A program made the translations under genes and the position numbers. From Psammoneis japonica (Eukaryota): a stretch of DNA of 35,737 nucleotides. Shown here piece after piece: positions 6,591 through 35,737 of the stretch; position 1 is the stretch's first letter; each line of letters begins with the position of its first letter. The DNA is taken from assembly GCA_008632985.1 (NCBI GenBank), contig QPGO01000246.1, forward strand, positions 62,001-97,737, written 5' to 3'. Below the pieces are notes generated by a model. That model worked only from the letters and a program-made list of their open reading frames with translations, was not told the origin of the DNA and did no database searches.

Positions 6591-8623
6591 TTAGTACATT
6601 TCTTCTCTCTGCCTCGGAGCGCACTTGATAATATCATCCACCCTCAGAATCATCTCTGCCGCCTCGGACGCACTGAGCAGCACTTGCAGTTTCGACTTGA
6701 AACTCTCCATGACTCCCAACTCCTTCATGTCTCCAATCGTTCCATTGTACATGTCGAGTCCGTACGAGCTCTTGCCGGACGCATGAGCCGCACGGAGTTG
6801 GGTCACAAGCTCCGCCGAATCGTATCCGCCATTGTCGGCCACAATGGCCACCATTTGGCGGAGTGCCTTGGCAAAGGCCGTCATGGCAAGGGCCTTTTTG
6901 CCGGGCGTCGACTCGACGGCACGATCAATGGCTTGAGCCATGATGATTTCCGTACAACCACCACCGTAAATAGTGCGTGGATCCTTGACGGTCGAGGTTA
7001 AAATGCAAAGAGCATCGTGGAGGGAGCGCTCGGCTTCGTCCAACAAGTGAGAGGAGGAACCGCGCAACACAATCGAACAGGCTTCTCCTGATTTGCAACC
7101 ACCAAAACGAATGACCTTGTCTTCGCCAATCATGACCTGAGTTTGACATGAAAAAATTGGGAGTGAGTTACAACAACTCTATAGAACTCACACAAAACAA
7201 AAACGACAACGACGACCGTTCGCTTACTTCTTCAATCACTTTGCATTCACCCAACGTGACAAGTTCGGGATGATCAAAGGTACTGGCAACTTCTCCCCCC
7301 GTCACGGCCGCAATACGCTCCACCCCATCAAAGTCGGCGTGTTCAATCGCCATGACGCCCCGTTCGGCAAAAATGGATTCGGGCAAATTGTAAATCAACT
7401 GCCGATTGATGAAAACGTTGCATCCGTGATTGATGATTTTCTCACACTTTTGTTTCATCTTGTCCTGGGAAAAAGATATACAGTGAGAATATTGCGTAGA
7501 GAGAGAGTGAGTCAGTACTGTTAGAACTATGCGGCACAATACGCTTATCTCAAGGGACAACTTCTGCTCACCTTTTCGGCCTGTTCAATCTCAGCCACCT
7601 TGTTCATGCTATCCACCTTGACGCGACTGCCATAAATTTTGATTTTATCCGTATCCATACTCGTGTTGGCAATGAGAATCTTGGCATTCTCCATCTTGTG
7701 TGGCTGCCCGACACCGATCGACTTGTTGAGCAAGAATCCATCCTCGAGATAGGAATCCCGCAGGGATCCTCCAGGAATTTTCAAGACTTGCACGTGATCC
7801 AAATTGTTGGATCCCTGCAAACGCAACACGGCATTGACGGCCAATTCCGAAAAGTGTTTCTTGTCGTGCGTCAAGAGTTTGGAAGAAAGAGTCGTTTCAC
7901 TAATGCGCAACAAGTCTTGACGGAATTGGGAGGGGTCCTTGGAATGGTCCGTCGCGGCGGCTTCCAGGGCCTTGCGGGCATGAGCACGAGCCAAACGCCA
8001 ACCGGCCGCAATCGTCTGCGGATGAATGCGCTGTGCGACCAACTGCTCTGCTTCGCGACTACAAGATAGATACAGTAGGAGATATAGTATTGTGAGAGAA
8101 TCAATCAATCATTGCAGAAGAAAACACAAAACACAATCAGTATATATATCTACTACTCACAGCAACTCCCCACAAAGTACCGCGACACTGGTGGTTCCGT
8201 CTCCAACTTCATCGTCTTGTACCTTGGCAATATCCACCAAAATCTTGGCGGCCGCGTTATCAATCACGACGGATTTCAAAATGGTGGCGCCGTCATTGGT
8301 GACCGAGATTTCCTGTTGGGATTGAGGACTGACAGACTGCAAAATCTTATCCATGCCCTTGGGACCCAGCGTCGTTTTGACCAAGTCGGCAATCGCAATG
8401 GCACCGACAAAACTAGACAAACGAGCATTTTCGCCCTATTTGAATAATAAAAAGAAGAGTACGTTGAGATGAACTTGCGCTAGTACAGCGAATCAGAGGA
8501 GAAAACACGTGCTTTCTCACCACGCGCATCATAAAACGCGTGACGAAATCGCTTCAGCCACAACGACAATATCCAACAATCTTGATTTCCACATACCTTG
8601 TCGACACTGGTGCCTTGTTCCAT
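6591..8623 (-). CDS. CCT2: T-complex protein 1 subunit beta (CCT-beta), 5 exons (8623-8597, 8435-8161, 8058-7572, 7464-7228, 7136-6591)
   Basis: [83 protein letters not shown]; canonical splice sites. Exon 1 (MEQGTSVDK) is the least certain. Confidence 0.95.
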
Positions 8624-8834: not shown

Positions 8835-11800
8835 GCGGTGATTGGCATTTTTCATTCTAAAGATAAGAGACGAAATTGGCGGAACTTTTCAAAATGTTTG
8901 TCGCCTCAAAGCAAACTAAAGCCCAATGACAGCAATCATCCTCTCGATCATCCACGTCCACCAACAACAAGTGGCAGAGCAGCAAGAAGTGAAGAAAGAA
9001 GAGAGACCTCTCTGTGATGGTGTGCAAAGGAGGGCAACTTTCTTGCACACTTTCTCAAAGTTGCCCCTGCAACAAAATCAACCATGATGATGTGCACACC
9101 TCATGATGATGTGCACACCTCATTGGTGCAAGCTCAGATGTTCAACCAGGCAAGACAGCAGCTCATGAACTTTTTTCAATGATGTGGTGCTTCCTCACAT
9201 GCAAGTCTGGCCTGCCCCAACCCAAGCTGATCTCTCCTCTTGTTTGCGCAAGAGTGGACAATGTTTTGCCGTTTCATGCAGCAGAGCATTGCAGCACAAT
9301 GACAACAGTTGAAACACACTGCAGTGCACACAAGGCTGTCAAAGTCCTGGGCTGATCCTGCCTTTGCCCCTGTTGTTGTGCCATGCAGGGTGCACGCACA
9401 ATCCAGCTTTTTTGAGGTTGAAAAGGGCTGGAGAAGAAAAGATGCTGCAGAGCGGCTGGCATCAGCCCCTGCTGTGCAAGCTGGGCTCTCTGCTGGCACG
9501 GTTTTCATCCTTGACTGTCTTTTGTTGCTGAAGCATCTTTTGCTGTGTGCAAGAAGCTTTGTCTCCTCTTTTCAGAGAGAGCCGCCTTTTTGTGTGTGCA
9601 GTGGCCATTGGACCCGGCAACATCATTGTTCTGAGAGAGGATTCTGGTCTGCCACTTGTTTGCTTAAAATAAAACAAGTTGCACATGTGGAACAAATGTG
9701 ACAAAGCTTGGTCTTTCCTCCTCTGAGAGACAGAGGAACCAGCCGGCCACAAAGATCACAAAACACAATGCTCAATGCTCTCTCTTCTCTTGCCACTCCA
9801 AAGAGAACATGTGCTCATTTTGAAAATTGCACAGCAGTGCATTTGTGCACTCTGATGTTGTGCAGCCAGCTGGCACAAAGAGTTTCAGTCTTGTCTCACC
9901 ACTTTCTTTGTGCGCTGCTTCAGACAGTGTGTGTGTGCGGCTGCCAGGGTGGGACACAGGTGAGCTGACAATGTTTTTTTGGCCAGGGCAGTGTTGTGCA
10001 GCACTTCCAACAAACAACTTGAATTCCCTGCCCTGTTCTTCAAAAACTTTTGTGCACAAGCTGCGTGCCAAAGATCACAGCAATGTGCAGCCATGCACTC
10101 AGTTGGTCAGAGATGCCAGTGGTGTCAACGAGTGTGTCAATGAGGGCCACCCACAATGGAAACAAGCAGCATGTCTTTGTCCACAACAAGCTCTGGCAGC
10201 TTGTCCACATTGATGGCTTTCAGCTGAGCAAGCTGGGAGGCTAAGATGCACAAAGGGTGGATGATGGCACAACAGAGGACATGCCGCCCCTTTGACTTTG
10301 TCATCTCAAAATCAAGAAATGAGCTGGCAGCCTCTTGGCATCTTCACAGAGTGACACACTTCAAGGTGTGACACATCCATGGGCCTGGACTCTGGCCTTT
10401 TATTGCAGTGTGTTTTTTGTGTGGTTTTTGTTTGTCAAGGTTGCCAGCAGCTCCACTGCTTTCACCAGTGTCAAACATCATGACACCTCTGAAGTTCTCC
10501 AGGTGCACAAATTGCACTCTTTCCACCTGGCAGCTCCTCCTTTTCATCAACACAGCAAAACAGACACAGCTTGCCTGCAGGCACATGACACGTGCACATC
10601 TGGGTGGGCTTGCTGCTGCACCCTGACCCTTTGCATGTCACAATTTCTGCACCCTGGACAACCCTTGTGCTTCTGGCACAGCAAAGTTGGGAGAGCAAGC
10701 ACTTCCAGAACCCTCGCTCTGCATGCACAGCTGTTGTCATTGTCAGTGCTCAATTTTTCACTCAACAACCCTTTGCCAGGCATGGCACCACATCACTGGA
10801 AATGACAGCTGCTCCCCCATCTGTGCCAATGTCTTCTGCAAGAGCTTTGCGCAGCTCTTTCCCAGTCTTCTGTGAGAGCAATGCTTTGCAAGCAAATCCG
10901 CTGCAGTTTTTCGCCACATCCAACAACTCCTCTTGTGGACAAGCGTTGCTTCCAAAGGGAGAGATGCACCATGGCCATTGTTGCTGGATCATCAACCCCA
11001 CCAAATGTTGGGTGGCCCAGAGTTTGGCCGTCATGCTCAGCACCTTTGTCTTTTTCAAATGACAAGTGCCCCCACAATTTCATGTGCAGAATCTCCACCA
11101 CAATCTCAGCAATCTTTTGCCGACCAGTGCAAAGTTGACATGTCGTCATGGGATCTTTCATTTTAAAAATGGGGGTGTCTTTGATCACACCACCATCTGG
11201 CCTCCATTTGGGCCAGCGCACATCAAACAATGTGAGCTGCCCCGTGCAAAGCCATTGAGAGCCAATGGCCATTTTTGCAACACAATGGTCTGCCTGCACT
11301 GGCGTGGAGACAGTTGGGACAATGTCTTTTCCCTGTGGGTCATGTTCTTCCACCACACGCCTCACAAGATTTGTGTGAAAAACCACTGTGTCAATTGCTC
11401 AGCCCTCACTCAGCCCAGCATGCTTTCTGGGCTTGCTCTGCATGGTCTGCTGGACTTTGGTTTTGCATGCCACTGTTTGGGCTGCACGAGCCAACATCAT
11501 GATTTGCATCTCTTGGGTTGGTGATTGACATTTGCGCTCCAAAGATCAGAGACAAACTTGGCAAAACATTTCAAAATGTTCATTGCCTCAAAGAAACAAA
11601 CAAAAATCCTGAGTCCATCCATCCTCTTGATCATTCACGTGTGGGTGCAAATCTGACAAACATGACGACAATGTTTGCTGTGTCCATCAAATGGGGGGGG
11701 GGGCAACAAAGCAGCAAGCCAAAAGCAGCGAGCAAAATGTCTGGCGCAAAGGGCTGTTTTCTCACTTTTTCAAAATTGCCTGTGACAAAATCAACCATGT

Positions 11801-13310
11801 GCATGTCTCATCAGTGCAAGCTCAAATGCCAAGCTGGGCAAGACAGCAGCAGGAGCCACGCTGGCATTTTCAAGAGGTGCGCACTTCCTTTTTTCACACG
11901 CGGCTCTCTCCGTTGTGCAAGAACTCCTTTTGGTGCAGAAAGTTTCAGCGCTGGGGTCAATCTTTTCTTTTTCAATGTGCCCTGTGCATGACCCAACAAG
12001 CTGGCAGCTGTTTTTGAAATTTTGGAGAGGGACAGAGACCAGACGATGGTGCGAGACAGCATTTGGGCTCAGCTCCCACTGGCAATGCAAGATGGGCTTC
12101 TCTGCTCACAACCTTTTTCTATTTTGGCTGTCTTTGGCTGCTGTTGTGGCTCCTTGCTGCCTGCCACCACCACAGACCTTCAAGTCAACAAGCTCTCTTG
12201 CTTTTCATTGGAGAACAGAGCTGCTTCATGTGTGCACACTTCCATTGGGTCCTGTGCTGTTGCTCAAAAAGAAATTTCTGGTCTGCTGCTCACTTTTCAA
12301 CAATGAAGAAAGTTGTGCCATTGCATGTTCAACAAGTGCAAACCCTCTGACAGAGCCAGCAGTCTCTAAAAACAAAACACAGCTCTCTCTTTCTCTCTTC
12401 TCACCCTTTTGGAGATGGCACAGACACACACATTTTGAAGATTGCACAGTGGCACATTTGTGCCCAATGAATGCTTGGCTGCAGCCCAAGTTTGAATCTT
12501 GTCTTGCCATGTTTTTGAGTGATGCTGCAGAAAGCATGTGTGCAGGACAGGACACAGAGCCATGGCTGACACTTTTTTTTTGCAGGCAGTGTGATGGGCC
12601 ACTGCAGCTCCACCAACAACTTTAAATCCCTGCGCTGTTGTTCAGAGACTTCTGTGCACAAGCTGTGCATCAAAGATCACAGCAGGGTGCAAAGCTGCGC
12701 ACTCTGCTTCTTTGCTCTTGGCTCTGGTGGTGCTGGCAATCATGTCCTCACCAATGTTCAAAACAATGGTGTGCAAGCACGTGCACTGCTGCTCACATTT
12801 GTTGGTCACAAAGGCCTTGGTTGTGGCCCAATTTTGGCTTTTATCTTGCTTTGTCTTTTCAAACTCTGCTGGCCACAGAAGTGTGTCATTGCAGAGAACA
12901 CAACCCATGCTGTGCAAGAGCTTTGTGTTCCTCTGTCAAGAACCAAGCTGATCAGTGTCACACACAGGAAGTGATGGGTGCAGCCTCACCTGAGCACCAT
13001 TGTGGCCTCCTGTTTTCTGCAGCAACTTAGTGTGACAGCACTTTCACTCCCAAAGTGGCCTCCCACCAAGCACCATGTCATGCAGTCTGCACCCATGACT
13101 TGGCTCCCAATGATGCCAATGACAATGATGCTGACAGCAATGTCAATGTTGCTCAAGCTTGTGCCTCCTGCACCATGGATGTGCAATGCCCCCATGGCCC
13201 CAGTCTCATGGCAGACTGGTGGTGTTACCACACCCCCCCGTGTGGCATTCTTTACCATGTGGTCAAGGCCAAACCGGACATTTTCAAGAAATGAACGTCA
13301 TTCTGAAAGA
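8835..13310. mobile_element. TpA/CpG-depleted composite repeat block with two diverged direct copies of one element (copy A from ~8835, copy B from ~11517)
   Basis: Collinear homologous segments: 8838-8905 vs 11520-11592 (ggtgatt...aaagat..gagac...tttcaaaatgtt...gcctcaaag), 9061-9160 vs 11777-11850, 9815-9850 vs 12431-12465, 10026-10085 vs 12628-12685. About 10 TA in 9000-13200 by eye. Confidence 0.7.
9083..9123. repeat. Perfect 19-bp tandem duplication (CATGATGATGTGCACACCT x2)
   Basis: Read directly; single copy at the homologous position in copy B (~11795). Confidence 0.9.
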
Positions 13311-14167: not shown

Positions 14168-15017
14168 CTACTTCATCTTGTTGGACGGTACTCTTTCAGA
14201 GCTCCGTTTCTTCAGCACAAGCCAGAGCAGTATAGTGGCCACGAGCCCAACAAATGGGATGATTAGCGTTTCTGATGTAAAGTAGGTCCGTTTCATATTG
14301 GCAGCACGTTGTTGTTTCAGAATATCTTGAAGATAGGTTACGATAGTGTCACTCACAACATTATTTCCATCTTGAACAAGGTTGAGAGGGGTCTTGTTTT
14401 GTGTGTTTTTCACAGAGACTGCTTGGGGATACTTTTCTGTAAGCAACTCGACTACTGCCGCAGGCACGAACAAATCGTCACGGCGGCTCCTCAAGGCCCA
14501 ATGCAAAGGCAAGTCTCCTAAGGCATCTTGATGATTAACACCTGCGGGAAATGCATCCAGTAAATGCTTCACAACATCTTGATCCGATCGCGCGGCACAC
14601 ATGTGAAGAGGAAGGGCTCCGTATTTGTCCGTCTCTCTGACGCTTTCAGGGTAAACTTCAAGAATGCTCTCTGTGAGCGCGGATTCCATCGGCTCGCAGG
14701 TGCTGCTGCAAGCTGCGCGCAACAGACTCCACCCAATCTGGTCCTTGGCTCAAACGTCTCATGGACAAATGCTCGGCAAATGCTGAAACATGGGCAGTGA
14801 TGGATTGCAGATCAATGCAGCATGAAGTGGTGGACAGCTCCACATCCATGGAGCTTCAAAGCACGCACATGGAAAGGCCCCCGTCGTTCATTTTGTTGTT
14901 TTTCATCACAACAACTTTGTGAAGATCCGTGTGGTTCCGAATCAAGGTCTGGATCTCCTGGAGTGACTGGTGAGATTGAAGTGCATGCAACAAGGTGGTT
15001 TCGTTGTGTTCCCCCAT
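14168..15017 (-). pseudogene. Ankyrin-repeat protein with a C-terminal TM segment; 5' part degraded by in-frame TGA stops
   Basis: Intact repeats YPESVRETDKYGALPLH, DALGDLPLHWAL, KNTQNKTPL. The same frame upstream reads PLHAALICNPSLPMFQHLPSICP*DV*AKDQIGWSLLRAA, with TGA at 14759-14761 and 14750-14752. Start position tentative. Confidence 0.7.
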
Positions 15018-15478
15018 GGTTTTCAGACTGAAATTGTGCTGTGGCCTGTCGATTGAGACATGACATGATGTGGTTGTTCTGTGGTTGCCCTCTTTTTGTT
15101 CATTGATCAACAAGCATTGCTCTGCAACTGCTGTTTTCTGTTGCCAGTGTACTCTACTCTAGCAGCATGATAGTGGGCCCCTCTAGCTAGCAGAGGGCTT
15201 CTTCAAGGTGATGTCGGATTTGCATTGTTGTCGGCCAATGTCGGCGGCAAAAAACGTGAGATCTTCTGCATGCGCTAACGCGCGCATGAAGTGCGCGAAA
15301 CAATGCCATGAATTAACGGTCAAATAACGCTCATGGATCCAAGATCCAGTACAAAATCAACGTGGCTTTACACGCACGAATCATTTCTCATCGGAACCCG
15401 CTTGCAAGCTCGTTTCACAACGCCGCCGGTTCAGTCACACGTTGTCGCTGCATAACCAATCAAGTAAACAAAACAACC

Positions 15479-16128
15479 ATGGTACGAACGAGAGTGTCGA
15501 GTGATGTTATGGACTGTTGAGTGATTGTTGTCGAGATTGAAATTGTCAGTCACTTCACCATGGTCTGTTATGTTGTCGAGAGCAAGCGTGTCTGTCTGCT
15601 GTTGGATGTCACGTAGTTTCTACGCGCTGATTATACCGAAGCCACGCTGTACGGCATCATACGCACAAACCTCACCTTTCTCGATTCCCTCTATGATTAC
15701 AGTCGACAGGAGTCACGGTGGACGATCAGCTCGTTCATGCCTTTAATGAATTCAAACTTCAGCGTGGTGAATACAAGCTCCGCTACTTTATTTATCACAT
15801 CAAGGACAAGAAGACGATTGTGATTGAAAAGCAGGGCGACCGTTCCAAGACCTATGACGATTTTTGTGCCGAACTCCCGGAAAATGATTGTCGATATGGC
15901 ATTATTGATTTGGAATTTGAAACCGACGACGGAAGGCCAACGTCGAAACTAGTTTTCATCACGTGGAATCCAGACACGGCGCCGGTTCGTCCCAAAATGC
16001 TTTACAGTGGTTCCAAAGAGGCTTTGAAATCGGCCTTGATGGGAGTCGGTATTCATATCAATGCCACGGATCATTCTGAACTCGATTTGGAAACTGCCAT
16101 TCTACCGACCGTCAAGAAGTTTGCGTAG
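15479..16128 (+). CDS. Cofilin / actin-depolymerizing factor; exon 1 is the ATG only (15479-15481), exon 2 is 15703-16128
   Basis: M|STGVTVDD..., LPENDCRYGIIDLEF, KLVFITWNPDTAPVRPKMLYSGSK (ADF-H motifs). GTACGA donor right after the ATG; TTACAG acceptor at 15702. Confidence 0.93.
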
Positions 16129-19828: not shown

Positions 19829-19989
19829 GAGGCGCCGTGAATGGAAGCAGTGGTTTAGAATCTGCATAGAAGTACATTGAATTCAATTGTTGCGAGATGA
19901 TGGGTGGCACATTTTTCTTGTAGAGTTAAAGGAATGATGTAGCTGCACGAGAATATTTCTATCAGCATCCATGACAATCCCCGTGTAAA

Positions 19990-21390
19990 CCATTTTCATT
20001 GACGCACTGTGATTTTCCCTCCGCGTCGTGATCACTGCATCGATTCCGGACAAATGACACAAAAGCGCACCTTCCAAATCAAAGGACACCCCTTTTGTGT
20101 TGCCATCCCATGCTTGTGTGGGTGGAAGCAGGAGTTCACTGAGAGGCTTGGCCACCTCTTTAAGCACCCACCTCTTCCGCCACCATGTGGACAACCAAAG
20201 CCCAATGTTGTTGTGCACTCAAGCACCACAACTTGGACAAGAAGAGTTGCACAAACCAAAAAGAACTGCTGTTGCAGTCATGACAATGGGCACTGTGAAA
20301 GGTTTTCTCCTCTGCACCTTCAACAGCTCCCCCTTCTCCACTGCTTGCTGCACCAAATTCTCAAAAAGGTTGCAAATGGAGGTGGTGCATGCCACTGGCC
20401 TTTCCGGCCTTTTTTTTGGAAGGCCACTCCTCTCAGGTGAGTCAGGAGCTGCAGAGTTTTACACAGACTCAAGCCCACAAAAGGTTGTTTTAAATCTTGC
20501 AAAATGTGCAACAGGCAGCACACAAAAACATCTGCAGCATTCACAATCATGTGAAGAGCACAGCTGTTCTTTTGTTGATTTTGTGACACCCTTTTTTGTT
20601 CAAAAGTTTCTGTGCAGAGTTTGGAGGCCCATGGTGGTGGGAGGAGAGAGTGGTCTGCCCCCCCCCCCTGCTCACACACACAGGGGTTTTTCACTTGTTG
20701 GCTGCTTGCACATTGGGTGGCTGCACTTGGAAGCAGTGTTGCAAATCATTGTGAGCAACACCACCAGAACAAGCCACTGCAAAAGCTGGCTCTTTCTTTT
20801 TGTCAGTGCCATGGGTGCTGCTGTGCATCATGTTGCCAACAAGCAGAGAGCAAGTTTGCTTGCTGTCCACACCATTGTCATCTTTCTCTGGCAGGAGCTT
20901 CGCCCCATGGTCATCGGAGGGGGCTCCAGCCACAAAAGAGAGAGAAAAGAGAGCCTGCTGGAGGTGCAACAGAGGGCAATCATCATGCAATTGAAAACAT
21001 GAAGAAATGGTTTAAAAATTGCATGACTTTGGGAAACAATGCAGCCAGCTTTGCGACGCTGTTTGGGGTCAGGGGGCAGGGTGGAGGGCAAGAGCAAGGG
21101 TGGCAGGCTTCTGCCTGCACAGCGCCACCGGCTGCTTCTTGTTGATCATCAGAACATCATCCTGCCTCCTTGGACGATCAAAATTTAGTTAGGACAAGAG
21201 ATTGAGTTGTTCAACTCAATGTTGTGGCTTGTGTTTGAACTGACATGGCATTTGGGTTGAGCTGAGCTGAGGCAGCCAGGTGCAAAAAGGGGGCTCATGT
21301 GTCACTCCAAAAAATTCGGACATTCGTGTTTCAACGGATCTGTCATTCAAAGATGTCCGTGCAGACATCGGACGACGGAGTTTTGCCAGG
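19990..21390. repeat. TpA/CpG-depleted degenerate block, probable non-autonomous TE remnant
   Basis: About 6 TA in 1.4 kb by eye, all in TTA context; poly-C tract at ~20658; no credible protein. Boundaries approximate. Confidence 0.55.
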
Positions 21391-21597
21391 GGCTTATGTG
21401 TGAGTGAATGATTCAGGAGTCTCTGTTACATTAATTAGTCCTCAAGTATGAGGATGTTGATTGCACTGAAGTCATAGTTTCATTTTTTCGATAGGCTCAC
21501 CAAAGTAGTCGTAGAACAGGCCCGATTAGAGTAGTCGACGAAGCACTCCAATCAAGGAACAGGGGGCATTCTCAATTCTACTCTAGGAGTGGTTGCG

Positions 21598-23628: not shown

Positions 23629-25742
23629 GCTCACCTGTGGTTTCCTCTCATCGACTGCTTTGATGTGAAACGATATGAATAGTTTTGTCGGCAAGATTGA
23701 TTGCTCGCATGACTGCCGGACTGGAGAGATATGATCAACAGAGAGCCGATTCATCGGAACTGGACAATAAGCTAGCCAGTACCCCACAATTCTTTTTTCC
23801 CATAGCATCTCCGTCTCCACTTCTTGTACCACGATTCGTGTCGCCCAAAGAAGCCTACCGGTAGGGGTTTGATGTCGTTCATCTTCTTCTGGATCATAGT
23901 CGGCATCCCTGTTGCTGTCTTCATTTTCTAATGGACTTGACCGCGAGTGTATCAAATGACTGATAGCAATGGTCGATTTCACGAAGACTCCCCAAAACGA
24001 GGCGAAAATGTTATTCCATTTAGCTTCAAGCTGATCTTTGGTCAAGCGTCTTCTGTAGCGTATCCGCGCAATTCAAGGTGGTTGAAATGCTGGATCATCC
24101 ATGCTCAAGATTCAGGAGTACCCGAGATCTCCACACATCTTCGAGGCATTTAAAGCCGGGCACCTCCGCTGACACAAAGAAGGGACGCATAACTTTGAAG
24201 TCAGAACAAGTTCCTCTTGGAAAGTCGAAATTCCGTACAACAGTCCTGAGAACGACGGATTTTGGTGGGTTCACGTATTTCATCTATGTCCTGCGCTTGA
24301 AGATTTAGTCTCTGATATGGACTTTGGATTGCATGGATCGATCTGAACACCAAGATGCTGCAAAACAAAGGCCAACGGCCAACTTTGCACTATTACATAC
24401 AGTAAGCCTTTCTCGTTTTCTCGTATTTTTCCCAAAAATCGCCCCGCTGTATCCCCACCCCTACTGCATTAGAGTCGCAGAACCACAGTCTCTGATTTGA
24501 TGGCGGGGAGGGGGGGGGGGGGCCAATTTTTCAAAATTGATCTTTGAAATTTTCGGGGCGTCGCGGTTCTGTGATCTGTGATGCGAACCCGTCCCATGAC
24601 AGCAGTGTGACCCCTAAACATCTAATCAAAAAATGTTTGCTGTTGTGTGTCAGAGCATCAACAACGACAGACACGAAATTGGAAAATGAACAACGGGCCC
24701 GATCAGACTGAAAAGGGGGCGATTGAAAATGATGGTGGACTGCATGACAACGACACGCCATTGTCTTTTTATGAAGAAAAGCAGAGAATGGGAAATCGTC
24801 GACAACCTCAAAAAAGACTTCAAGTTGCAAATCAAGATGCGAACGAACCTGATGATTCAGAACCTCCAAGTGTGATTGCCACTCCGGTGACTCAAACACT
24901 GACGACGGATGAAGAGACGGACCTTGACACACTTTGGGAGCCCGTGCCGCATGCGCCGACAATGACACCGGATGAGCGCTTTCAGCAAATTGCAGACATG
25001 ATTGCATGTTTGCAGCATCAACAGCTGCTGTCATTTGCTCCTCATCAGAACCAAGATTCTAGCGCGACTGAATCTAACTTGTCGAATGTGGAACAAACCA
25101 TGGGATGGAAAACTCAGACTGTGAGGGCCACAGCGAGCGATCCTCCTGCTTCACTTGCGACGGCTTCCACCCAGAAACAGAACCTGCAACGCAGTCAAAA
25201 GCCAGATCCTCCAGCAATGCAATTTCTGATTGATGACATGCTGCCAAAACTCGATCCCAACTGTGAAGTGCAGAGTGACGATTTGAATGATTGGGTTCAG
25301 GAAAGATTGATTCCGGCTGTGTCTGTCCATCGCGAGGCAGGGACCGGCACGAGAGCTGATTCATCGGGATTGGACGATGGAAAGCCACCCGCCAGACACA
25401 TTGACAATCTCTTTGCAATGGATGCCAATTCGGAATTTCCAGACTTTGATGAAAGGTGGAAAAGAGCTGAGCAAAGGGTGCAATCGCTTTGTGGCAAACG
25501 TGACAGTGCGGTCAACCAGCCAACCACCACATCCAACTCATCCCCCAATCTCCCCGATGCATCAAACGCCCCATCCCAGGCAGCATCGAACAATGAGGTG
25601 ACAGAGAATGCAAGTCAATTTCATGGTGCCACTTGGATGGCTCCCGCAAAATGCACTCCAGCAGATCCCAAGGACATTGACGGCGAGCCCAAAGACGAGA
25701 CGAAAGTCCTGGTCTCTGCTCCAGATCCGGTCACTGCCCATT

Positions 25743-26099
25743 TGTGACAATTTGGCATGACTGTGGACATCTCAGGACGTCCAATCTTCTTAGAATTTCC
25801 ATGTGGCTGAGTTGGACATCGGAAAGGACAATTCAAGTGATGAACTCATGCCGTGACTCTCAGTGCATGTTCTACATGAGTGACATTCAAAGAATGTCCA
25901 TTTTCTGACGTGGCATCATCCAAGATCTTTCGGATCACAAAACGAGAGATTCACTTTTAGATTAGTTCTAGCTCACAATTTCAACTGAGCAGGAGTCAGC
26001 AAGACAACTCATTGCCATTTCACTGGCTTTTAGTGCCTTGCACTGATTGTCAGCAGCACACTCTACAGATGGGACCTGTGTCCCAGGTAGAATCTCACA
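25743..26099 (+). repeat. 5' LTR (357 bp)
   Basis: TGTGACAA...GAATCTCACA; aligns without gaps to 32328-32684. Confidence 0.95.
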
Positions 26100-26119
26100 C
26101 GCTTCCTCTGCGACCTGCT
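26098..26119 (+). other. Putative primer-binding site complementary to the 5' end / D-arm of initiator tRNA-Met
   Basis: Reverse complement AGCAGGTCGCAGAGGAAGCGTG resembles the eukaryotic tRNAiMet 5' sequence AGCAGAGTGGCGCAGCGGAAGCGTG; there is no TGG-type PBS. Confidence 0.55.
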
Positions 26120-26171
26120 TCGCAACTTCGATTTCAAGCCAGCCATTGATCGAGACCCAAGCCATCCAACA

Positions 26172-27652
26172 ATGGCAACCACCCGCACCTCGTCTGCCAT
26201 GACTGGAGCTCCTGCTTCAGCTCCCGCTGCTGCTCCTGCTGCTGCTCCAGCTGCTGCTCCTGCTGCCGCTCTGGCAGGTGCACCTGTGCCAGCACCACCA
26301 GCTCCACCGGTTCCACCAGTCCCTCCAGGAGGCGGTGGTGGAGGAGGTGCACCTCCAGTGCCTCCAGTGCCTCCGGTTCCTCCTGCAGCACCTGCTGCAG
26401 GACCCACATTCGCATTGACCCCTGGTCAGCACCGTCCAAATGACTGGACAGACTGCGGCACCTCACAAGGTCTCAAGCTCTGGAATGCTGCCACGGCTCC
26501 ACTGCCTCACGAGTTCAATGGAGACTCTGAAGGTCTCAACAAATTCTGTGAAGTTCTCAACGAACGAGCAGCAGAGTCAGGATGGAAGTCAGGAACGGGA
26601 AACATCATGTCGATCCCTGACAGCAATGGAGTCGCTCGAGACTTGATCACCGAGCATGGCAGACTTGCCGCACAAAACGTGCGCGACCATGCTGCTGCCT
26701 GCATGGCTGCTCAGTCAAGGCAAGCCCAGAACCAAGTCCAAATGGCTGAGGCGATCTCTCAGACCCTAACTGTGGAAGCCAGAGACAAGATCATCACCGA
26801 AAGTGAGCAATGCAAGATCAACGGAGTACAAGTCGGTGCACTGTTCTTCAAACTGCTCACTCAGAAGGCCATTGTGGACACTTGCTCAACCGCGAACTGC
26901 TTCCACAAGAACTTGTCCAGCCTTGACTCATGCATGTCGACCTGCAACTCGAACATCGAGGAGTTCAACAAGCACGTCAAACTCAATCATGACGGACTCA
27001 GAGCTGGGGGAGAAGGCTGCGATGACCTTGTGGTCAATCTGTTCAAAGGATGCGCAGCAGCCAGCGATCAAGCATTCGTCAAGCACATGGCTGACATGGA
27101 ACAGAAGCACGACGACGGTGAGGACTGCACTCTGGAACGAGTCATGCAGCTAGCACTCAACAAGTGCACGAACCTTGATCAAGCAGACAAGTGGGGAGCA
27201 CTCTCTCCTGAGCAGGAAAGGATTGTTGCACTCACCATGGAAGTCGAGACCATCAAGGATCACAACCTCAAGCTCTCCAAGGCTCTCAAGAGCAGTCCCA
27301 GTGAGTCCAAGGGAGGTGGTGGCAAGCAGAGCTCCAAGAACAAGAGCGAGAACCCGAAGCGCACCAAGAAACAGGACGAAGCCTGGAAGAAGACTCCGCC
27401 AAAAAGGACAGTGATCCCACGAAGACTGTCAACGGGCACAAGCATCATCACAAGAGTCAGAAGGGACGAGACTGTTGTTGGTGCAAGTGCCACTCTGCTT
27501 GGGTGGCTCACTTGCCTGATGATCCGGGAGACAAAGGTTGTCGACTTCGCAAAGCTCAAGAATCTGAAAGCGGAACGAAAGACTCCAACAAGAAAGTTTC
27601 CTGCACCAACGCTCTGGCCTCAATCATCGAGGATCTCGAGTCCGAGGAATGA
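26172..27652 (+). pseudogene. gag: gag (Ala/Pro-rich N-terminus, CHHC-type knuckle); 1-bp frameshift at ~27405
   Basis: TFALTPG, LITEHGRL, NLFKGC...SDQAF. After the shift: WCKCHSAWVAHLPDDPGDKGC...LESEE*, TGA at 27650-27652. No Tyr. Confidence 0.85.
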
Positions 27653-30600
27653 CTGGTCCGGAAGGTGCTCCGGACATGGGCATTCTGCATGAAGGCGGCA
27701 CTTGTCGCGTTCGCAATTGCCCCAGTCACCACAAGCTTCGTAGATGCCATGGCTCCACTGTTGGTGCTCACAGTGTTTACAACGCTCAACCTGCCAGAGA
27801 AGAAGTGGAAACGCGCATCTGGGTCAGCAATGACATTGGGTGAGTGGATCATTTCGCAAATCCCAGCTGACAGCATGACTGGCACACGCAAACCACGACG
27901 AAACAAGAGTCGACACTCACCGCGATACATCACTCACAAGAAGAAGGGCCACCCTGCTCGAATCGCGTGCAAGACAGCTCAATGCGAGATCACCTTTCGT
28001 GAAACAGTCTACGCTGACACCTCGACCACCACGACGCCATTCAAAAGAGAGCCAAGAACGGAGCCAGTGTCCTGCGACTCCGACTCCTTCATTGTCGGTG
28101 TCGACAACCACACAACCTGCACAATGTTGAATGACAGATCACACTTTGTCGGTGACCTGCGTCCCACAAACAAGCGGATCAAGGGAGCAGGCGGATGGTT
28201 GGACGCAGAAGGAGAGGGCACACTCAAGTGGTGCATCGAAGACGACGACGGACAGGTGCATGCGATCACCACACACGACGCACTGCATGTTCCCAACTCA
28301 CCTGTTTGCCTCCTCTGCCCTCAGCAATGGAGCCAGCAAGCTCAGGATCATTGTCCTGAACCACACGGAACGACTTCCTGTAACCAAGACAACGGCCTCC
28401 CACTCATGTGGGATCAAAGGAAGCACACGAGGCTGGTCCCTTGGACCAACAACTCCAACGTTGCACGCTTCCGTTCCGCACCCGGTGCCACTGATTGTCG
28501 GGCATTCACCGCCGCAGTCGATGCTGACAACAATGTCGAGACTGTCGAGCACGTAGCCTGTCAAACGCACGTGACACCTCCAGACGACGACAGTGACCCT
28601 GAGTCCGCGGACGCTGCGAATCACAAAGACGCCTTCACAAGTCCTGATGAGACAGGTCCTGACGAGACCCAAGGCACGTGCAACAACATTGATGAGGACG
28701 TGCCACTGTTGTTCAAACCGACAGATGCTGCACACAGATCCGACTCACCTGATGAGAACCTCAAGGATCTAGCAACCCCAGACGTCCACTCTCAACTCAA
28801 AGATCCCATCAACGTCATCCCTGACGATGATGCCCTGGCGGCCACCAACGACCAAGGTGAATTGTTGCGTTGGCACTGTCACCTTGGACGCCAATCATTC
28901 AAAATGATTGAGCTCCTAGCTGCATTGGGTGTCCTTCCGCAATGCCTCCTGAAGGTCAAGGAACCCAAATGTGCCGGCTGCCTCTGTGGCGCCATGACCA
29001 AACGCCCTTGGCGCACCAAATCCAGACGCAAGTCGAACACACATGTCGCCACAAAGCCAGGGGAGGTCACATCGGCAGATCAGCTCGAAAGCTCAACCCC
29101 AGGCTTTGTCCCTCAACTCAAAGGGAGACCCACAAAACAGTGATGCAGAGCAGCAACAGCATTTGTCAATCACTGCTCCAAACTTGGGTGCGTGTTCCTG
29201 CAATGATCACTTGCCTCCGAGGAAACCCTGAAATCCAAACATGCTTTCGAAGCCTTTGCGAGACGACATCATGTCCAAATCAAACACTGCCATGCCGACA
29301 ACGGACAATTTGCTGACAACGCTTTCATGCAAGACGTTGAGAAACAAGGACAAACCATGTCGCACTGCGGCGTCAACGCCCACTTCCAAAACGGCATCGC
29401 TGAAAAGCGAATCCGCGACCCACAAGAACAGACTCGCAAACAGCTGCTACACACGAAAGCAAGATGGCCAACGGCCATTGAGATCAATCTCTGGCCAAGT
29501 GCGCTGCGCAATTCAAACGAGCTCAAGAACAAATTGCCCAACCACGAAGATGGCAGCTCTCCAATCGAACGATTTGCCTCCGTCAAGGTCGCTCCAAATC
29601 TCAAACAACACCACACTTTCGGATGCCCCGTCTGTGCGCTTGACAACCGACTGCAGAGTGGACAGAGAGCACCCAAGTGGCAATCAAGAGCAAGGTTAGG
29701 AATCAACTTGGGACCATCTCCGAGACACGCTGGATCAGTCAATTTAGTGCTCAACCTCGAGACTGGACTTGCCTCTCCGCAATTTCATGTTCAATTCGAT
29801 GACTTCTTCGAGACGGCACGGCCTTCAGCAGGAAATGCACCTACATTCTCGCAATGGCAAACTGCACCAGGACTCAAGAAGCAAAGAGCATTGAGGTTCA
29901 ACATCTTCAAGCCACAAAGGGAAGCAAGGGAGCCTCGCTCCGCTGTGCCAGCGCAGAACACTTCGACACCGGAACCCAATGTTCCGCAACAACTCAAAGA
30001 CGAGCATTTCCCTGTCACTGAAGACGAGACACCCGAATCAGCAGAAGACACGACACCTGAAGACTCTCAAGAGACAGTGCCAGAACAACCAAGTGTCAGC
30101 AGGGCTGGCAGAGTGCGCAAACCAATGCAACGAATGGTGGAAAGTCAACAACAATGAGCCGCTGGCATCGCATCGCATCTGTCGACCTGTTGCGAGTGCT
30201 GCGATGCAATGCACGAGGACGACTGCAAGATGCAAGATGACATGGACTCACCTTTCGCCTTCTCAGCCAGAACCGACCCAGATGCCATGTGTTTTGATCA
30301 AGCTGTGAATGAACCAGACCGAGATGAGTTCGTCAAGGCTTGCATCAAGGAAGTCAATGATCACATTGAACAAAAACACTGGAAACTGATTCCTGTCAAA
30401 GAAGTTCCAGAGGGAGTCGACATGCTCCCAGCGGTGTGGTCTGTGAAGAGAAAAAGAGACATCAAGACAAGAAAAGTGCACAAGCACAAGTCAAGGCTCA
30501 ATCTGCACGGCAGAAAACAAGAGCATGCAGTCAATTGTTTTCAGACTTGTGCAGCAGTTGTCAATTGGAACACTGTGCGGTTCCCACTCATGCCGTCCAT

Positions 30601-32284
30601 TCTGAACAGATGGCACACTCGCCAAGTCGACTTCGTTCTTGCCCATCCTCATGCCGACATCGAATTTGACATGCACATGGAGCCACCAAAAGGCATCGAA
30701 ACCAAACGCGGCAATGGCAGAACCCATGTGTTGAAATCACTCAAGAACCTGCATGGACAGAAACAAGCAGGGAGAGCATGGGGTGAGCACTTGCGAGAAG
30801 GATTGTTGAAAATTGGATTCAAACAATCAAAAGTCGACGAATGCCTTCATCATCGAGGAAATGTTGTTTTCGCACACCACGTCGACAATGGCACATTTGC
30901 ATCACCAGACAAGGATGCCATTGACAAGGCGATCGAAGATGTCCGCAATGCGAACTTTGACATCGATGATCAAGGAAATGTTGACGACTGCCTTGGTGTC
31001 AACATCGAGACACTGCCTGATGGCAGAATGAAACTGACGCAACCACAAATGATCAAGCAAATGCTCGAAATGGTGAACTTGCCTCATCGTGTGCCGGACA
31101 AGCAGACTCCAGCAGCATCTTCAAAGATGCTACATCGACATGAGAACGAAGAATCTTTTGGACGCATTCCAGACGCAGGTGGGAATCCGTGTGACATTGG
31201 GCCCGTGGACTTCTACGTGCGAGCTCCACAGCAAAATTGTGCGGCAATTAAAATGTCAATGATCGCCAACAGAAAATGAGGCAATTTTGTGAACGCACAA
31301 ACTCGCACATGATTGAAGCACATCATTTTTTACTTGGCCAGTTACATTCTTCAGACATTGAAGAATGTAACTGGCGCATTGTTGTTTCTACAAATTTGTC
31401 ATGTAAAACGTCTGGGGCTTCGCAAAACAGCGAGTCTGGACAATTTTTTTTAAATGTCACACGTAGAAATCTACGTGCGAAACATACGACGGATGACAAA
31501 AATTGTTGTTGTCACACGTCAGCACTGCGAGCTCCCACCCAGGGCTGGAACGCGTCTTTGATGGATCCTTTGACTGTCGCAGCATCATTGGCAAATTGAA
31601 TTTCCTGGAGAAGAGCACTCGACCCGATGTCGCGTGCGCTGTGCATCAAGTCGCGCGATTTTCAAGTGACCCCAAACGATCACACAGTGAGGCAGTGCCA
31701 TGGCTCTGCAAGTGCTTGCGAGCAACCAGACACGAAGGTGTCATTCTGGACCCAATGGAAGACAAGTCATTGGAAGTTCACGCCGATGCCGACTTCGCAG
31801 GCAATTGGAACAAAATGACTGCCCCTTGTAACGTCAGCACTTCAAAGTCCAGGGCAGGGCATGTTGTCAACTGCGCAGACTGCACTGTCGTTTGGACATC
31901 TGAGCTTCAGACACAAATCGCGCTAAGTGCAACAGAAGCCGAACACATCGCTTTGTCCGAGAGCCTCCGAAGCGCCATTCCTGTCATCAATTTGATCAAG
32001 GAATTTCAAGAGCATGGACACAAGGCACCATCCAAGACTCCTTTGGTTCATTGCAAGGCATTCGAGGACAATTCAGGTGCATTGGAAATTGCAAGACTGC
32101 CCAAGATGAGACCAAGAACCAAGCATTTCAATCTGGCGCTGCATCATTTCAAGGAACATGTTGGGAAGGGAGAGTCATTTCCATTCCACCCATTGACACC
32201 ACTGAACAAATTGCAGACATGGAGACCAAGCCAGTGCCTCAAAACATGTTTGTTCGCCTTCGAAAGAAGCTGCTCAAGTGGTGA
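27653..32284 (+). pseudogene. pol: pol (protease, integrase, RT, RNase H); stops, frameshifts and a MITE insertion
   Basis: PR IVGVDN; INT WH..LG..SF...CAGC, SADQLES, HADNG, QNGIAEKRIR, FGCPV, SPQFHV; RT QVDFVLAHP, KNLHGQKQAG, HHVDNG; RH ADADFAG, IALSATEAE, FEDNSGAL, RTKHF, IADM. TGA at 29141 and 29204. Confidence 0.92.
31161..31556. mobile_element. 396-bp MITE / non-autonomous DNA transposon nested in the RT region
   Basis: Imperfect 24-bp TIRs (GACGCATTCCAGACGCAGGTGGGA vs reverse complement GACGCGTTCCAGCCCTGGGTGGGA); 4-bp TSD TTTG (31157-31160, 31557-31560). Excision restores EESFDGSFD. Confidence 0.88.
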
Positions 32285-32319
32285 TTTTAGATCAAGTCAC
32301 AGCTTCACCCGACACTTTC

Positions 32320-32327
32320 AAAGGGAG
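32320..32327 (+). other. Polypurine tract
   Basis: AAAGGGAG immediately before the TG of the 3' LTR. Confidence 0.8.
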
Positions 32328-32684
32328 TGTGACAATTTAGTGTGACTGTGGACATCTCAGGACGTCCAATCTTCTTAGAATTTCCATGCGGCTGAGTTGG
32401 ACATCGGAAAGGACAATTCAAGTGATGAACTTGCGCCGTGACTCTTGGTGCATGTTCTACATGAGTGACATTCAAAGAATGTCCATTTTCTGACGTGGCA
32501 TTGTCCAAGATCTTTCGGATCACAAAATGAGAGATTCACTTTTAGATTGGTTTTGGCTCATAATTTCAACTGAGCACGAGTCAGCAAGACAACTCATTGC
32601 TGTTTTGCTGGCTTTTAGTGCCTTGCACTGATTGTCAGCAGCACATTCTACAGACAGGACCTGCATCCCAGGTAGAATCCCACA
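32328..32684 (+). repeat. 3' LTR (357 bp)
   Basis: TGTGACAA...GAATCCCACA followed by the TSD CCATT. Confidence 0.95.
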
Positions 32685-32940
32685 CCATTTGGTTCTCGAT
32701 GATGACCACAGCTCTCAGCTGCAGAGGCTGAATGAAGCAGTTGCATCCTTGCAAGAGAAACAGAATGTAATCGATGCCACTGTGAAGTGTGCAGAACCTG
32801 CAGGCAAAGAGAATGAAGACTGTGATGATGAGCTGAGTTTTCTGGAAGCATGTGGACCTGCACTGATCTTGTCTTTCCTTGCTTTGGGTGTGGGAATCAC
32901 CGTTGGTTTGAGGATGGGACATTCACGAGGTGGCAAATGA

Positions 32941-34960
32941 TGCAATGGACACCATGCCAAAGAACCGTCGACAGATCTGCTTGTTCGCAACATTGAAAGG
33001 AAAGTCTCGAGCTGAGACTCGACATTGTTGTGCCAGCGAAAACACTGGTTGTGTTCGCCGACCGCTTGTGCTGGTGGCATCATGATGAATTCGTTGTCGT
33101 CCCAGAAAAACGTCTTGTTGAACTGGTGGGAGACCTTGATGGTGCATTGACAGACATCATTGGATGGGGTCGACGAACACTCGATCATGTGCTTTCTGCA
33201 TGTCTGCGCTTTCACAGTCAACATTGCTCCTTTCGTCTTGATTCGACGGAAAAGCCTTCCATGTCCTGTTCTTGCCAATCCCTGCAGGCCTTGCGAGTGA
33301 TTGATCTTCTTGATGCTTGCCTGGAGCTCCAGCTGGAGGAGGGACTCTGGACGCAATTCATCGCCAAGCTCAGAAAAAATGTGGTGCGCTGATGGCGACT
33401 GAGTGAAGCGCAATGTGTGCTCCTCGAAGTGCCAATCGTGATGGTGGAAAAACCACTCAATTGCGTGAGCAAGGTTGCCCCCCAGTGGTCCAGCATCAGC
33501 GCTCCGGTCTTCAACAAGGCATTGACAACCAAGCACTTTGCAATCTGCGACTTCAATGCAGTTCTGCAAGAATCTTCTGTGGCACACTGTTTTTGTTTCA
33601 ACACACTCCACCATGGGGATGAGAGAGAGGGAGGGCAGTGAAAACATCACTGGCATGAGAGAGAATGCACATCACATGACTGGCACACAAAAAAACATTG
33701 AGGCCTCATTGTTTGAGAGTGATGCCCCAAATGACAAATGCATGGCTTGGAACTTCCTTCCTCTTGTTGTTGCCATGCAAGTCCTGACTTCCACAATGTT
33801 GGTCTCTTGCTGATTGGCAAAGTCCAGCTCAAAAACAATTTTTCTCTCTGCACACAGGCACAAAAACAAAAGCAATTCTTCAAATTGATTGTGGAGGTTT
33901 TCATGTCTGACCAGGTGCTGGAAGAGCTGAGAACTGCCACTTTCTCTTGCTTGTTCTGTTCTCTTGCATGGGTCATTTGATTCTGCCATTAGAGAGTGGC
34001 AGTTTTTTCAGATGTGTGTGTGCTGGCTGGCACCAGAGCCACTCTTGTTTTTGAGATGGTGTCCTGTGTGATTGACCTCCAATTGTTCCCCAGAGGGCAC
34101 AGGCAACTGACAGTCTGCACCAAGCAATCTCAAGAGAGCAAGTCACAGGTGCACTCACGGATCTGTTTGGATCAACAGGTGGAGCAGCAGCGACCTTCGC
34201 AGCTCAAAACATGTGGAGCTGCCTGCAGCACAGCTGTCCAAAGGCAGTTGATAAATTGTTTTGTTTCCACTCACAAACATTACAATGGGTTGTGATCAAA
34301 CAACATGGCTCGTGAGACATTTCTGGAGAAAGATGCTGATGAGCCAAGCACTGTCCACACTGACAAAGATCATGCAAGCTTGAACCACCAAATGGTGCCA
34401 GAACTGTGCCGCTCTTAAACTCTGAAATGAGAGGAAGGTGTGCAGTGGCTCTTTGTAAAAATTTCAAGTTTGGACTGTGCTGCATGCCACCACGTTGTTG
34501 CAAGAAAAAGAAAATCTCCGAGTTTGCCTGTGTTTTTGTGCACAAGCGTTGTGTGTGCCCCACACAGCTTTGGGGCAGCAAATGGGCTTTGCTTTGGCGG
34601 GATTCCATCACCCAAAACATTCATCTCAGTCATCCTTGAAACAAAAGTCTGGCACATTCTTGAAGGAGTGGCCATGTGACACTGCACACACTGGTGGGGG
34701 GGGGCGCTGCTTTGACCTTCTTGCTTCTTCTCTCTGCCGAGCCACCACCACCAGCCCATCTCTGCATCATCATCTCATGATGAACAAAAGCTGTTTCTCT
34801 TTTGAGACAAGAATTTGTTGTGCATCCTGAGTGACAAACAAGCAGCAGACAACAGGCAACAAGCCCGAATGATTGTTGTCTTTGGGATGGCAAGTGTTTG
34901 GCAACAAATTAAATGATGAGATGCATGGCATGTGGGCTTGTCATGGCCGCATGGCCGCCG
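32941..34960. repeat. TpA-depleted block continuing the sequence the copia inserted into (degenerate ORF ~32940-33620, then non-coding)
   Basis: About 6 TA in 2 kb by eye; an interrupted protein-like frame (LVVFADRLCWWHHDEFVVVPEKRLVELV...) with no recognised family. Confidence 0.5.
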
Positions 34961-35068
34961 TACGTTCGGATCGTCAATCTTTCGTTCGATGTTGTCTGGG
35001 GGGATGTGCTTTTCAGGCATCAGAAATCAGGCAGAAGAATTTTGTATGCCGAAAAGGATCTTGACACC

Positions 35069-35737
35069 ATGGCGCTTCTTTACAGCATTCCCGGCGTCCG
35101 CCTTGTCCATGCCAAGCTGAACCAGTTGAGCTCTTTTATTCCTCCACCGCCTCCCGAAACATTGGAACCGAGACGCATTCTAATGGTTCATTCTCACCCC
35201 GTTCCAGACAGTTTGAGCGCTTGCATCGCAGATACCTTTCAAGAGGCCGCCGTCGACGCGGGCCACACTGTGGAACGAATCTCACTTTATGAACACAATG
35301 ATCCGTCAAAGTGCTTATCGTCCGAATATGAGCAAATACGAACGAGAAAATTACTTTTCTGATGAAAAGGTTCTGTCTAAGAAGTCGAGACGCATTTAGG
35401 TCTGATAAAGTGGTGCGACACGTTGGTGTGTGTTTATCCGACTTGGTGGATGAACACTCCTGCGAGCCTCAAGGGATTCTTTGATCGAACATTTCTACCT
35501 GGAGATACGTGGGAATTGCCTTCTCCTGAATCAGCAGGACAAGCGTCTCTTGTTGGAATTGTGCCCAACTCCACAACATTGAACGCATCGTGGGCATTTC
35601 CACCTATGGAGCGACTCGTGCCATTGCCACCATGGCGGGAGACAATGGCCGGCGAATGATTTCAAACAAGGTTCGTCATTCCGTGTGTCCTGCTGCCACT
35701 GTACAATGGTTGGGCTTGTACGGAGTGAATACTGCGA
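35069..35737 (+). CDS. NAD(P)H dehydrogenase (quinone), flavodoxin-like fold; about 3 frameshifts; runs off the window end
   Basis: [41 protein letters not shown] and GISTYG motifs lie in different frames (shifts near 35315, 35380, 35568). The true start may be upstream. Confidence 0.8.

Follow-up and report, generated by a model that had tools for sequence, protein, structure and literature searches.

TpA-to-TpG/CpA hypermutation of a copia retrotransposon and of bounded neighbouring domains in the diatom Psammoneis japonica

We analysed a 35,737-bp stretch of the genome of the diatom Psammoneis japonica (NCBI GenBank assembly GCA_008632985.1, contig QPGO01000246.1, forward-strand positions 62,001 to 97,737), hereafter the window, in whose coordinates all positions are given. 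A Ty1/copia retrotransposon at 25743-32684 has lost nearly all of its TpA dinucleotides, and with them its tyrosine codons, through changes to TpG and CpA. This loss took place at the DNA level, after integration of the element, and ran almost to saturation. We regard it as likely that such post-integration conversion of TpA to TpG or CpA strikes bounded, probably silenced domains, and that its agent is probably an adenine deaminase of the TadA/ADAT2 kind.

Tyrosine and TpA loss in the copia element

The full structure of a Ty1/copia element is present, and the copy is dead. Two 357-bp long terminal repeats (LTRs) of the TG..CA form, 92.4% identical, stand on the + strand at 25743-26099 (5′ LTR; 8 TA left, observed/expected ratio, o/e, 0.29) and 32328-32684 (3′ LTR), and the same pentamer, CCATT, lies directly before the first (25738-25742) and after the second (32685-32689) as a 5-bp target-site duplication (TSD). 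The interior, likewise on the + strand, consists of a Gag-like open frame (26091-27692; no Tyr in 534 codons, no Pfam match), the protease/integrase part of pol (27653-30157, in two frames, 27653-29143 and 29207-30157), the reverse transcriptase (RT; 30158-31156; Pfam RVT_2 over 30158-31279, E 2.6e-26) and the RNase H part of pol (31557-32345), recognised by its motifs HADAD and EAEH and by alignment with relatives. Between the last two, pol is split by a 400-bp insert (31157-31556) with 24-nt inverted-repeat ends, which resembles a miniature inverted-repeat transposable element (MITE). The integrase lies upstream of RT-RNase H, as in Ty1/copia elements; it carries the motif HCHADNG at 29285-29305, and the two Pfam matches upstream of RT, gag_pre-integrs (E 3.4e-4) and SH3_retrovirus (E 5.4e-4), are weak and below the cut-offs. 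In a tblastn comparison the full-length relative P0214 (1323 aa) is colinear with the element over 28067-31159 and resumes at 31557 with the very residue at which it had broken off. Autonomy has been lost, as the catalytic YxDD of RT reads HVDN (30878-30889) and pol is broken into several frames in addition to the 400-bp insert. Among contigs assembled independently from a public sequencing run (X1), one with a depth of 39.5 joins 25737 to 32685 exactly, skipping the element and one copy of the TSD; the same sample therefore holds an empty site, either on the other allele or at a paralogue.

Only three Tyr remain in the 2005 codons of the element's five stop-to-stop frames (at 27926, 28010 and 31214), and the last belongs to the later 400-bp insert. 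The element proper thus keeps two, in agreement with the initial annotation of this DNA, which had called the element almost Tyr-free with 2 Tyr in the N-terminal part of pol. That annotation had also listed conserved Tyr motifs turned into Cys or His, and we found every one of them, HVDN included, where it had been placed. To put the loss in numbers, RT was compared with 40 normal-Tyr relatives (P0121-P0161 minus the Tyr-free P0160), a column being counted if it held 10 or more residues and was 60% or more Tyr. Of the 10 conserved Tyr columns obtained in this way, the window has Cys in 5 and His in 5. Over the whole of pol, aligned with 12 full-length relatives (the first 12 among 150 representatives at 1000-1600 aa and at least 2% Tyr), none of the 26 conserved Tyr columns is kept; 9 are Cys, 8 are His, and the remaining 9 fall mostly in poorly alignable gag. 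Other residues are well kept against the same relatives (Trp 19/22, Phe 19/26, Leu 41/54). The balance of Cys and His in both comparisons (5:5 and 9:8) means that TpA was changed on both strands. At the level of dinucleotides, the two parts of the element have a TpA o/e of 0.08 (24 TA in 5414 bp) and 0.14 (11 TA in 1128 bp), with TpG at 1.45-1.67 and CpA at 1.40-1.67, while ordinary window DNA (18,776 bp) holds 733 TA, with TpA at 0.56, TG at 1.20 and CA at 1.22.

The LTR pair dates the change. A new insertion starts out with two identical LTRs. In the present pair 27 of 357 columns have come to differ, with one intact TSD around both, and 20 of the 27 lie at an inferred ancestral TpA. Eight of the differences are CA/TG doublets, in which an ancestral TA was changed to CA in the first or second LTR and to TG in its partner; at four further sites one LTR has TA and the other TG or CA, and the rest are three CpG versus TpG, three other transitions and one transversion. 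When 27 random transitions were simulated 20,000 times, the mean number of doublets was 0.39 and the maximum 5. Because the eight observed lie beyond the simulation, editing of the RNA before reverse transcription is excluded, and descent from a source copy that was already mutated cannot by itself account for the pattern. Within the LTRs, TpA sites have a hazard some 200 times the divergence seen at non-TpA, non-CpG sites, a rough figure based on four background differences. With 20 of 27 columns at TpA and Cys and His in balance, the initial annotation was right in proposing an A:T to G:C change at TpA on both strands, and the excess of TA to TG/CA over other transitions, on which it had staked that proposal, is present in the LTR pair in the form of the eight doublets. 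Such doublets offer a simple test of post-integration mutation that needs an assembly only and can be used on any genome.

Other copies carry similar differences. The depth of the copia interior is roughly 5-10 times that of unique neighbours (bins of 221-540 versus about 31-84), and we read 22 between-copy events in X1 contigs from 28 listed in-element rows among 1449 difference rows: 4 are TG/CA doublets, 4 are TA versus TG/CA, and 7 are CpG versus TpG/CpA. The LTR doublets show a 6+2 pattern, which taken alone is not significant, and no strand-coordinated processive clusters were seen; in the runs test of TG/CA order, z ranged from -2.3 to +1.0 in depleted domains and from -2.7 to -0.5 in ordinary DNA.

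Comparison with relatives indicates that the loss of TpA and Tyr is not a trait of the family. In 76 of 80 related metagenome loci the RT-matching part has a TpA o/e of 0.42-1.00, against 0.016 for the window there; 88 of 92 homologues from a word-indexed search have 1.9-6.3% Tyr, and the median among the best 150 representatives of an exhaustive search is 3.5%. Tyr-free homologues account for 4 of the 92 and for 4 of the best 150, the closest, P0213, among them. Public protein sets hold Tyr-free copia polyprotein fragments (P0160, P0172, P0178, P0194, P0213, P0234, P0308 and P0350, with 0-7 Tyr). The four that were aligned have Cys or His at Tyr columns, and P0213 is the closest relative of the window RT, at 62% identity.

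TpA-free copia loci were found in metagenome contigs as well, at L066:1-5900 (equivalent to L059, 99.9% alike) and L047:1-3500 (equivalent to L035, 98.2% alike). Since the members of each pair are nearly identical, the four loci represent two elements. They belong to other copia families, their RT region has an o/e of 0.08-0.16 with 0-3 Tyr, and two of the contigs are labelled microbial-mat. In L066 the TpA-free stretch stops abruptly at about 5900-6000, after which TpA stands at 1.19; the 700-aa frame in the flank has no Pfam match and no homologue at E <= 1e-5. Searches for LTR pairs in L066, L047 and L035 found none.

Depleted domains, flanking bases and CpG decay

The loss extends beyond the element. 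Four sharply bounded TpA-poor domains make up 16,561 bp of the 35.7-kb window. They contain 66 TA (o/e 0.06), and TpG and CpA stand at 1.72 and 1.62. Three of them are CpG-poor: a patch at 1711-2664 (4 TA, o/e 0.06; CpG 0.16), a domain at 8917-13226 (11 TA in 4310 bp, o/e 0.04; CpG 0.17) and an island between the HGD and peptidase M64 genes at 19986-21395 (7 TA, o/e 0.08; CpG 0.27), the last at single-copy depth. The fourth is the large domain that holds the copia element (24624-34910), in which TpA is almost absent; its left flank (24624-25742) has 3 TA (o/e 0.04) and no Pfam match, and its right flank (32685-34910), which is CpG-poor (0.36), has 6 TA (o/e 0.04). The edges adjoin ordinary genes. 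Position 8917 lies upstream of a CCT chaperonin gene, 19986 and 21395 lie between HGD and the peptidase, and 34910 adjoins the start of a flavodoxin-like frame (34913). Tyr content in neighbouring genes is normal, as the initial annotation had stated, at 4.4% in HGD, 5.2% in DGAT and 3.7% in peptidase M64.

The domain at 8917-13226 contains an old direct duplication (8837-10089 versus 11520-12691, period about 2.65 kb, 70-76% identity), whose units differ by 7 TG/CA doublets and by at most 2 of any other doublet type. The left end of the first unit (8849-8914) lies just outside the TpA-free domain, and it keeps TA and CpG where the second unit has CA. A further stretch of 498 bp without TA (14652-15150; o/e 0.16 in a 500-bp window) is outside the depleted domains that we assigned, and shares part of its length with the 5′ end of a minus-strand ankyrin-repeat frame (14171-14749). 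With the copia element removed, a 455-codon open frame spans the insertion site (24626-25742, continuing from 32690), and a minus-strand frame of 318 codons lies in the TpA-free DNA at 32718-33671; neither has a Pfam match. Long open frames in TpA-free DNA may be spurious, because such DNA lacks TAA and TAG stops.

Susceptibility of TpA depends on the flanking bases, as a comparison of TA surviving in depleted DNA with TA in ordinary window DNA shows: RTAY is essentially all gone, and YTAR often survives. The nearly erased contexts are GTAT/ATAC (1 versus 132), GTAC (1 versus 74), ATAT (0 versus 45) and CTAT/ATAG (1 versus 106), and the spared ones are TTAG/CTAA (21 versus 52), TTAA (7 versus 30) and CTAG (5 versus 24). 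The six TA kept in both LTRs are all TTAG, CTAC or GTAG. The same order of contexts is found in the two independent metagenome copia elements, where no GTAC, ATAC/GTAT or ATAT is left. Seen in three independent elements, the precedence of RTAY over YTAR provides a biochemical fingerprint for testing candidate deaminases. We also tried a model with one uniform rate for all LTR TpA sites and rejected it, as the classes of kept sites then predict 0.3 doublets and 8 were seen.

A second, slower process, the decay of CpG to TpG or CpA, is shown to act on the same domains. CpG stands at 0.16-0.36 of expectation in the older domains and at 0.61-0.75 in the element, which has lost about 90% of its TpA and about 30% of its CpG. 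With CpG mildly reduced and TpA nearly gone, the loss of TpA has run far ahead of methyl-CpG decay. The methyl-CpG decay of silenced transposons resembles what we describe in affecting the same domains and in yielding TpG and CpA as well; it differs in that it cannot remove TpA and in that it is slower here. The initial annotation had set methyl-CpG decay aside on the ground that it cannot remove TpA, and that argument stands; the part that needs amending is that CpG decay does act alongside the TpA loss.

Candidate agents and what guides them

TpA-targeted A:T to G:C hypermutation has been described once before, in one rhizarian alga. In Bigelowiella natans, integrated nucleocytoplasmic large DNA virus (NCLDV) and virophage DNA undergoes TpA to TpG/CpA hypermutation, according to a 2026 preprint (Mettrop et al., bioRxiv 10.64898/2026.01.13.699255). 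Of the 231 de novo mutations that mutation-accumulation lines gained in two viral regions, 230 were A to G or T to C at TpA, the rates were about 1000 times background and were reached in some lines only, and TpA-poor coding sequences were enriched in reverse-transcriptase and DDE domains; its authors propose an ADAT2-like deaminase, and cite DNA activity of amphioxus and trypanosome ADAT2 (bioRxiv 10.64898/2026.01.13.699255). Comparison shows that the signature of the window matches the one in B. natans, which is exactly TpA to TpG/CpA, so that the initial annotation's statement that there is no described system like this no longer holds. Both show an exclusive A:T to G:C change at TpA that is kept to bounded regions and can strike single-copy DNA, and in both a long-term TpA loss goes with a gain of CpA and TpG and is apparently episodic. 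The differences are that B. natans is a rhizarian and the present host a diatom, hence a stramenopile; that viral regions are hit there, and an LTR retrotransposon and intergenic domains without recognisable content here; and that depletion reaches an o/e of 0.04-0.14 here versus 0.45 in the B. natans NCLDV region. CpG co-depletion and the hierarchy of RTAY over YTAR are seen here, and nowhere in the main text of the preprint is there any mention of the terms diatom, stramenopile, retrotransposon and context (bioRxiv 10.64898/2026.01.13.699255). Our literature searches for the TpA signature found only this preprint, and none for diatoms.

In the mechanism that we favour, an enzyme would be recruited to silenced or foreign chromatin and not to sequence duplication. 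A polynucleotide adenine deaminase of the TadA/ADAT2 kind would convert A to inosine, to be read as G. The natural substrate of TadA and ADAT2 is A34 after the conserved U33 of the tRNA anticodon loop, in DNA terms a T-A step. In the element, the conversion of TpA has taken away the Tyr codons (TAY to TGY or CAY), the ATA, TTA and CTA codons and all TAA and TAG stops, and has ruined the RT active site, with YxDD turned into HVDN.

Several points weigh against this reading. The deaminase step is wholly inferred, as the most likely agent in our analysis, and T to C chemistry at the palindromic TpA would leave the same footprint. One assembly cannot show current activity. The X1 run has no library type on record and may come from the assembly's own sample, so it supports the base calls and does not represent an independent individual. 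Of 79 stop-to-stop frames of 80 aa or more in the depleted domains other than the element, none matched Pfam above cut-off (best E 0.003), and a tblastn search of the window with 9 copia relatives found no copia-like sequence outside the element; the label of foreign or silenced DNA for the non-copia domains has been inferred solely from their CpG depletion. The unmutated MITE-like insert inside the mutated element shows that the process is not continuous, or not universal. Finally, the host is assigned by one gene, HGD, whose best matches have at most 68% identity, the 9 organism-named ones among the best 120 all being diatoms.

The insert bears most directly on the question of guidance. At 31157-31556 it has a TpA o/e of 0.37 and a CpG o/e of 1.12, and is not hypermutated, though it lies inside the mutated element. 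Three X1 contigs join 31156 directly to 31557 without it. Its arms (31161-31184 and 31533-31556) are 79% complementary, its depth bin reads 78,087, where unique DNA reads about 31-84, and it is joined to dozens of different flanks, all of which make it a very abundant MITE-like element. At the other extreme, the TpA-free stretches 19986-21395 and 33108-35081 are at single-copy depth, at a likeness floor of 85%. Mutated single-copy domains and a spared high-copy insert argue against simple repeat recognition, and the claim of repeat targeting in the initial annotation is not upheld. We find that recruitment to silenced, probably methylated, chromatin with episodic activity fits better. The coupling to CpG depletion, the sparing of the MITE-like insert and the sharp stops beside housekeeping genes point to chromatin state and not to homology. 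A RIP-like, homology-triggered process, in which duplicated sequence and not chromatin state is recognised, seems unlikely to us, and is still the most serious of the alternatives. The raised depth of the copia interior and the old duplication in 8917-13226 would suit it; repeats that are old may by now be less than 85% alike, and the insert could simply be younger or too short for recognition. It has to contend with the single-copy stretches, with the fact that the most repeated sequence here is the unmutated one, and with B. natans, whose main target is single-copy (bioRxiv 10.64898/2026.01.13.699255).

The chemistry might alternatively be directed at thymine. The T of TpA would be modified by an enzyme, for example oxidised to a base of the 5-hydroxymethyl- or formyl-uracil type, which mispairs with G, or excised and misrepaired, in either case giving T to C. 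As TpA is its own reverse complement, A to G and T to C look alike in the sequence, and the balance of TG and CA outcomes suits both. Some protists, moreover, swap T for hydroxymethyluracil preferentially at TpA. We consider this chemistry improbable nonetheless. The requirement for TpA matches the U-A context of TadA/ADAT substrates, and our analysis yielded no positive evidence for an attack on thymine. The sole published proposal for the signature is adenine deamination (bioRxiv 10.64898/2026.01.13.699255).

That the loss is an artefact, in which G or C was called for a modified base at TpA, is very improbable, even though the runs come from one sample. The independently assembled X1 contigs match TpA-free stretches of 1.0-1.6 kb at depths of 31-38 without a single letter difference: one reproduces 19832-21425 (1594 bp, depth 31.4), and others cover 32902-34098 and 34072-35119 (depth 34-38). 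Noisy long reads would not yield zero-difference contigs. Strand-dependent misreading predicts phases that are all TG or all CA, while TG and CA are mixed together here just as they are in ordinary DNA, and the same signature recurs in metagenome contigs of other assemblies.

Editing before integration, by an ADAR- or ADAT-like conversion of A to I in the retrotransposon RNA that reverse transcription would then fix, is equally hard to sustain. Its target would be a retroelement, as here, and ADAR-type enzymes prefer a 5′ U, a preference cited in the preprint (bioRxiv 10.64898/2026.01.13.699255). It founders on the two LTRs, which come from one template and differ by eight CA/TG doublets and four TA/TG or TA/CA sites within an intact TSD, on changes on both strands, and on 3.3 kb of flank and three other domains that carry the same loss without a retroelement signal. 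Least probable of all is an error-prone polymerase of the Pol eta type with its WA motif, which the initial annotation had offered as an alternative, or selection against TpA/UpA: TpA is mildly scarce throughout the window (o/e 0.56), but ApA (1.15 versus 1.17, depleted versus ordinary DNA) and TpT (1.24 versus 1.17) are not depleted, contrary to what loss at WA would predict, the changes destroy catalytic residues and hence were not favoured by selection, and relatives keep their TpA.

Other systems, wider reach and neighbouring genes

Fungal RIP resembles the process described here in being a permanent, saturating transition mutagenesis of mobile DNA that depends on dinucleotide context, affects both strands and kills the element. 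It turns CpA into TpA and lowers GC, whereas here TpA is destroyed (0.06), CpA stands at 1.62 and GC is raised (0.50 in depleted versus 0.47 in ordinary window DNA); the initial annotation had correctly noted that RIP runs the other way. APOBEC3, which deaminates C to U on cDNA, and ADAR, which converts A to I on double-stranded RNA, share with it deaminase-type hypermutation of retroelements and, for ADAR, the preference for a 5′ U or T; they act before or during reverse transcription and on one strand, and the changes in the window came after integration, on both strands, and in non-retroelement DNA too. TadA and ADAT2-ADAT3 are alike in taking an A after U as substrate and in giving A to G by deamination. 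New in the present case are the diatom host, the proof of post-integration action that the LTR doublets give, CpG decay in the same places, a high-copy MITE-like insert that has been spared, and the order of RTAY over YTAR.

The same footprint, at saturation, in a diatom LTR retrotransposon suggests that the system is widespread among major marine algae, or that it has arisen more than once. Diatoms and chlorarachniophytes may share an old chromatin-guided defence by a DNA adenine deaminase, possibly throughout the SAR group (stramenopiles, alveolates and rhizarians); it would be recruited to methylated or silenced insertions and not to repeats, prefer RTAY, act in bursts an order of magnitude faster than methyl-CpG decay, and kill invaders through the erasure of Tyr, Ile (ATA) and Leu (TTA/CTA) codons. 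This is a tentative proposal, towards which we lean less than away from it. If it is true, the removal of TAA and TAG would be a side effect that leaves long false open frames, and the footprint in microbial-mat contigs and in about 3% of the nearest public copia relatives would mark the natural range of the system. On the practical side, depleted domains lack two of the three stop codons, and their spurious open reading frames and Tyr-free "proteins" can be a trap for gene callers and for protein databases. Base-editing work would also take an interest in a natural enzyme that edits adenine in DNA at a defined motif.

The genes around the depleted domains are intron-poor. They include the CCT/TCP-1 chaperonin gene on the minus strand (6594-8435, in four exon-like frames), a cofilin/ADF gene (15697-16125) and the flavodoxin-like-fold gene that starts at the edge of the TpA-free domain (34913-35656), and all three have normal TpA.

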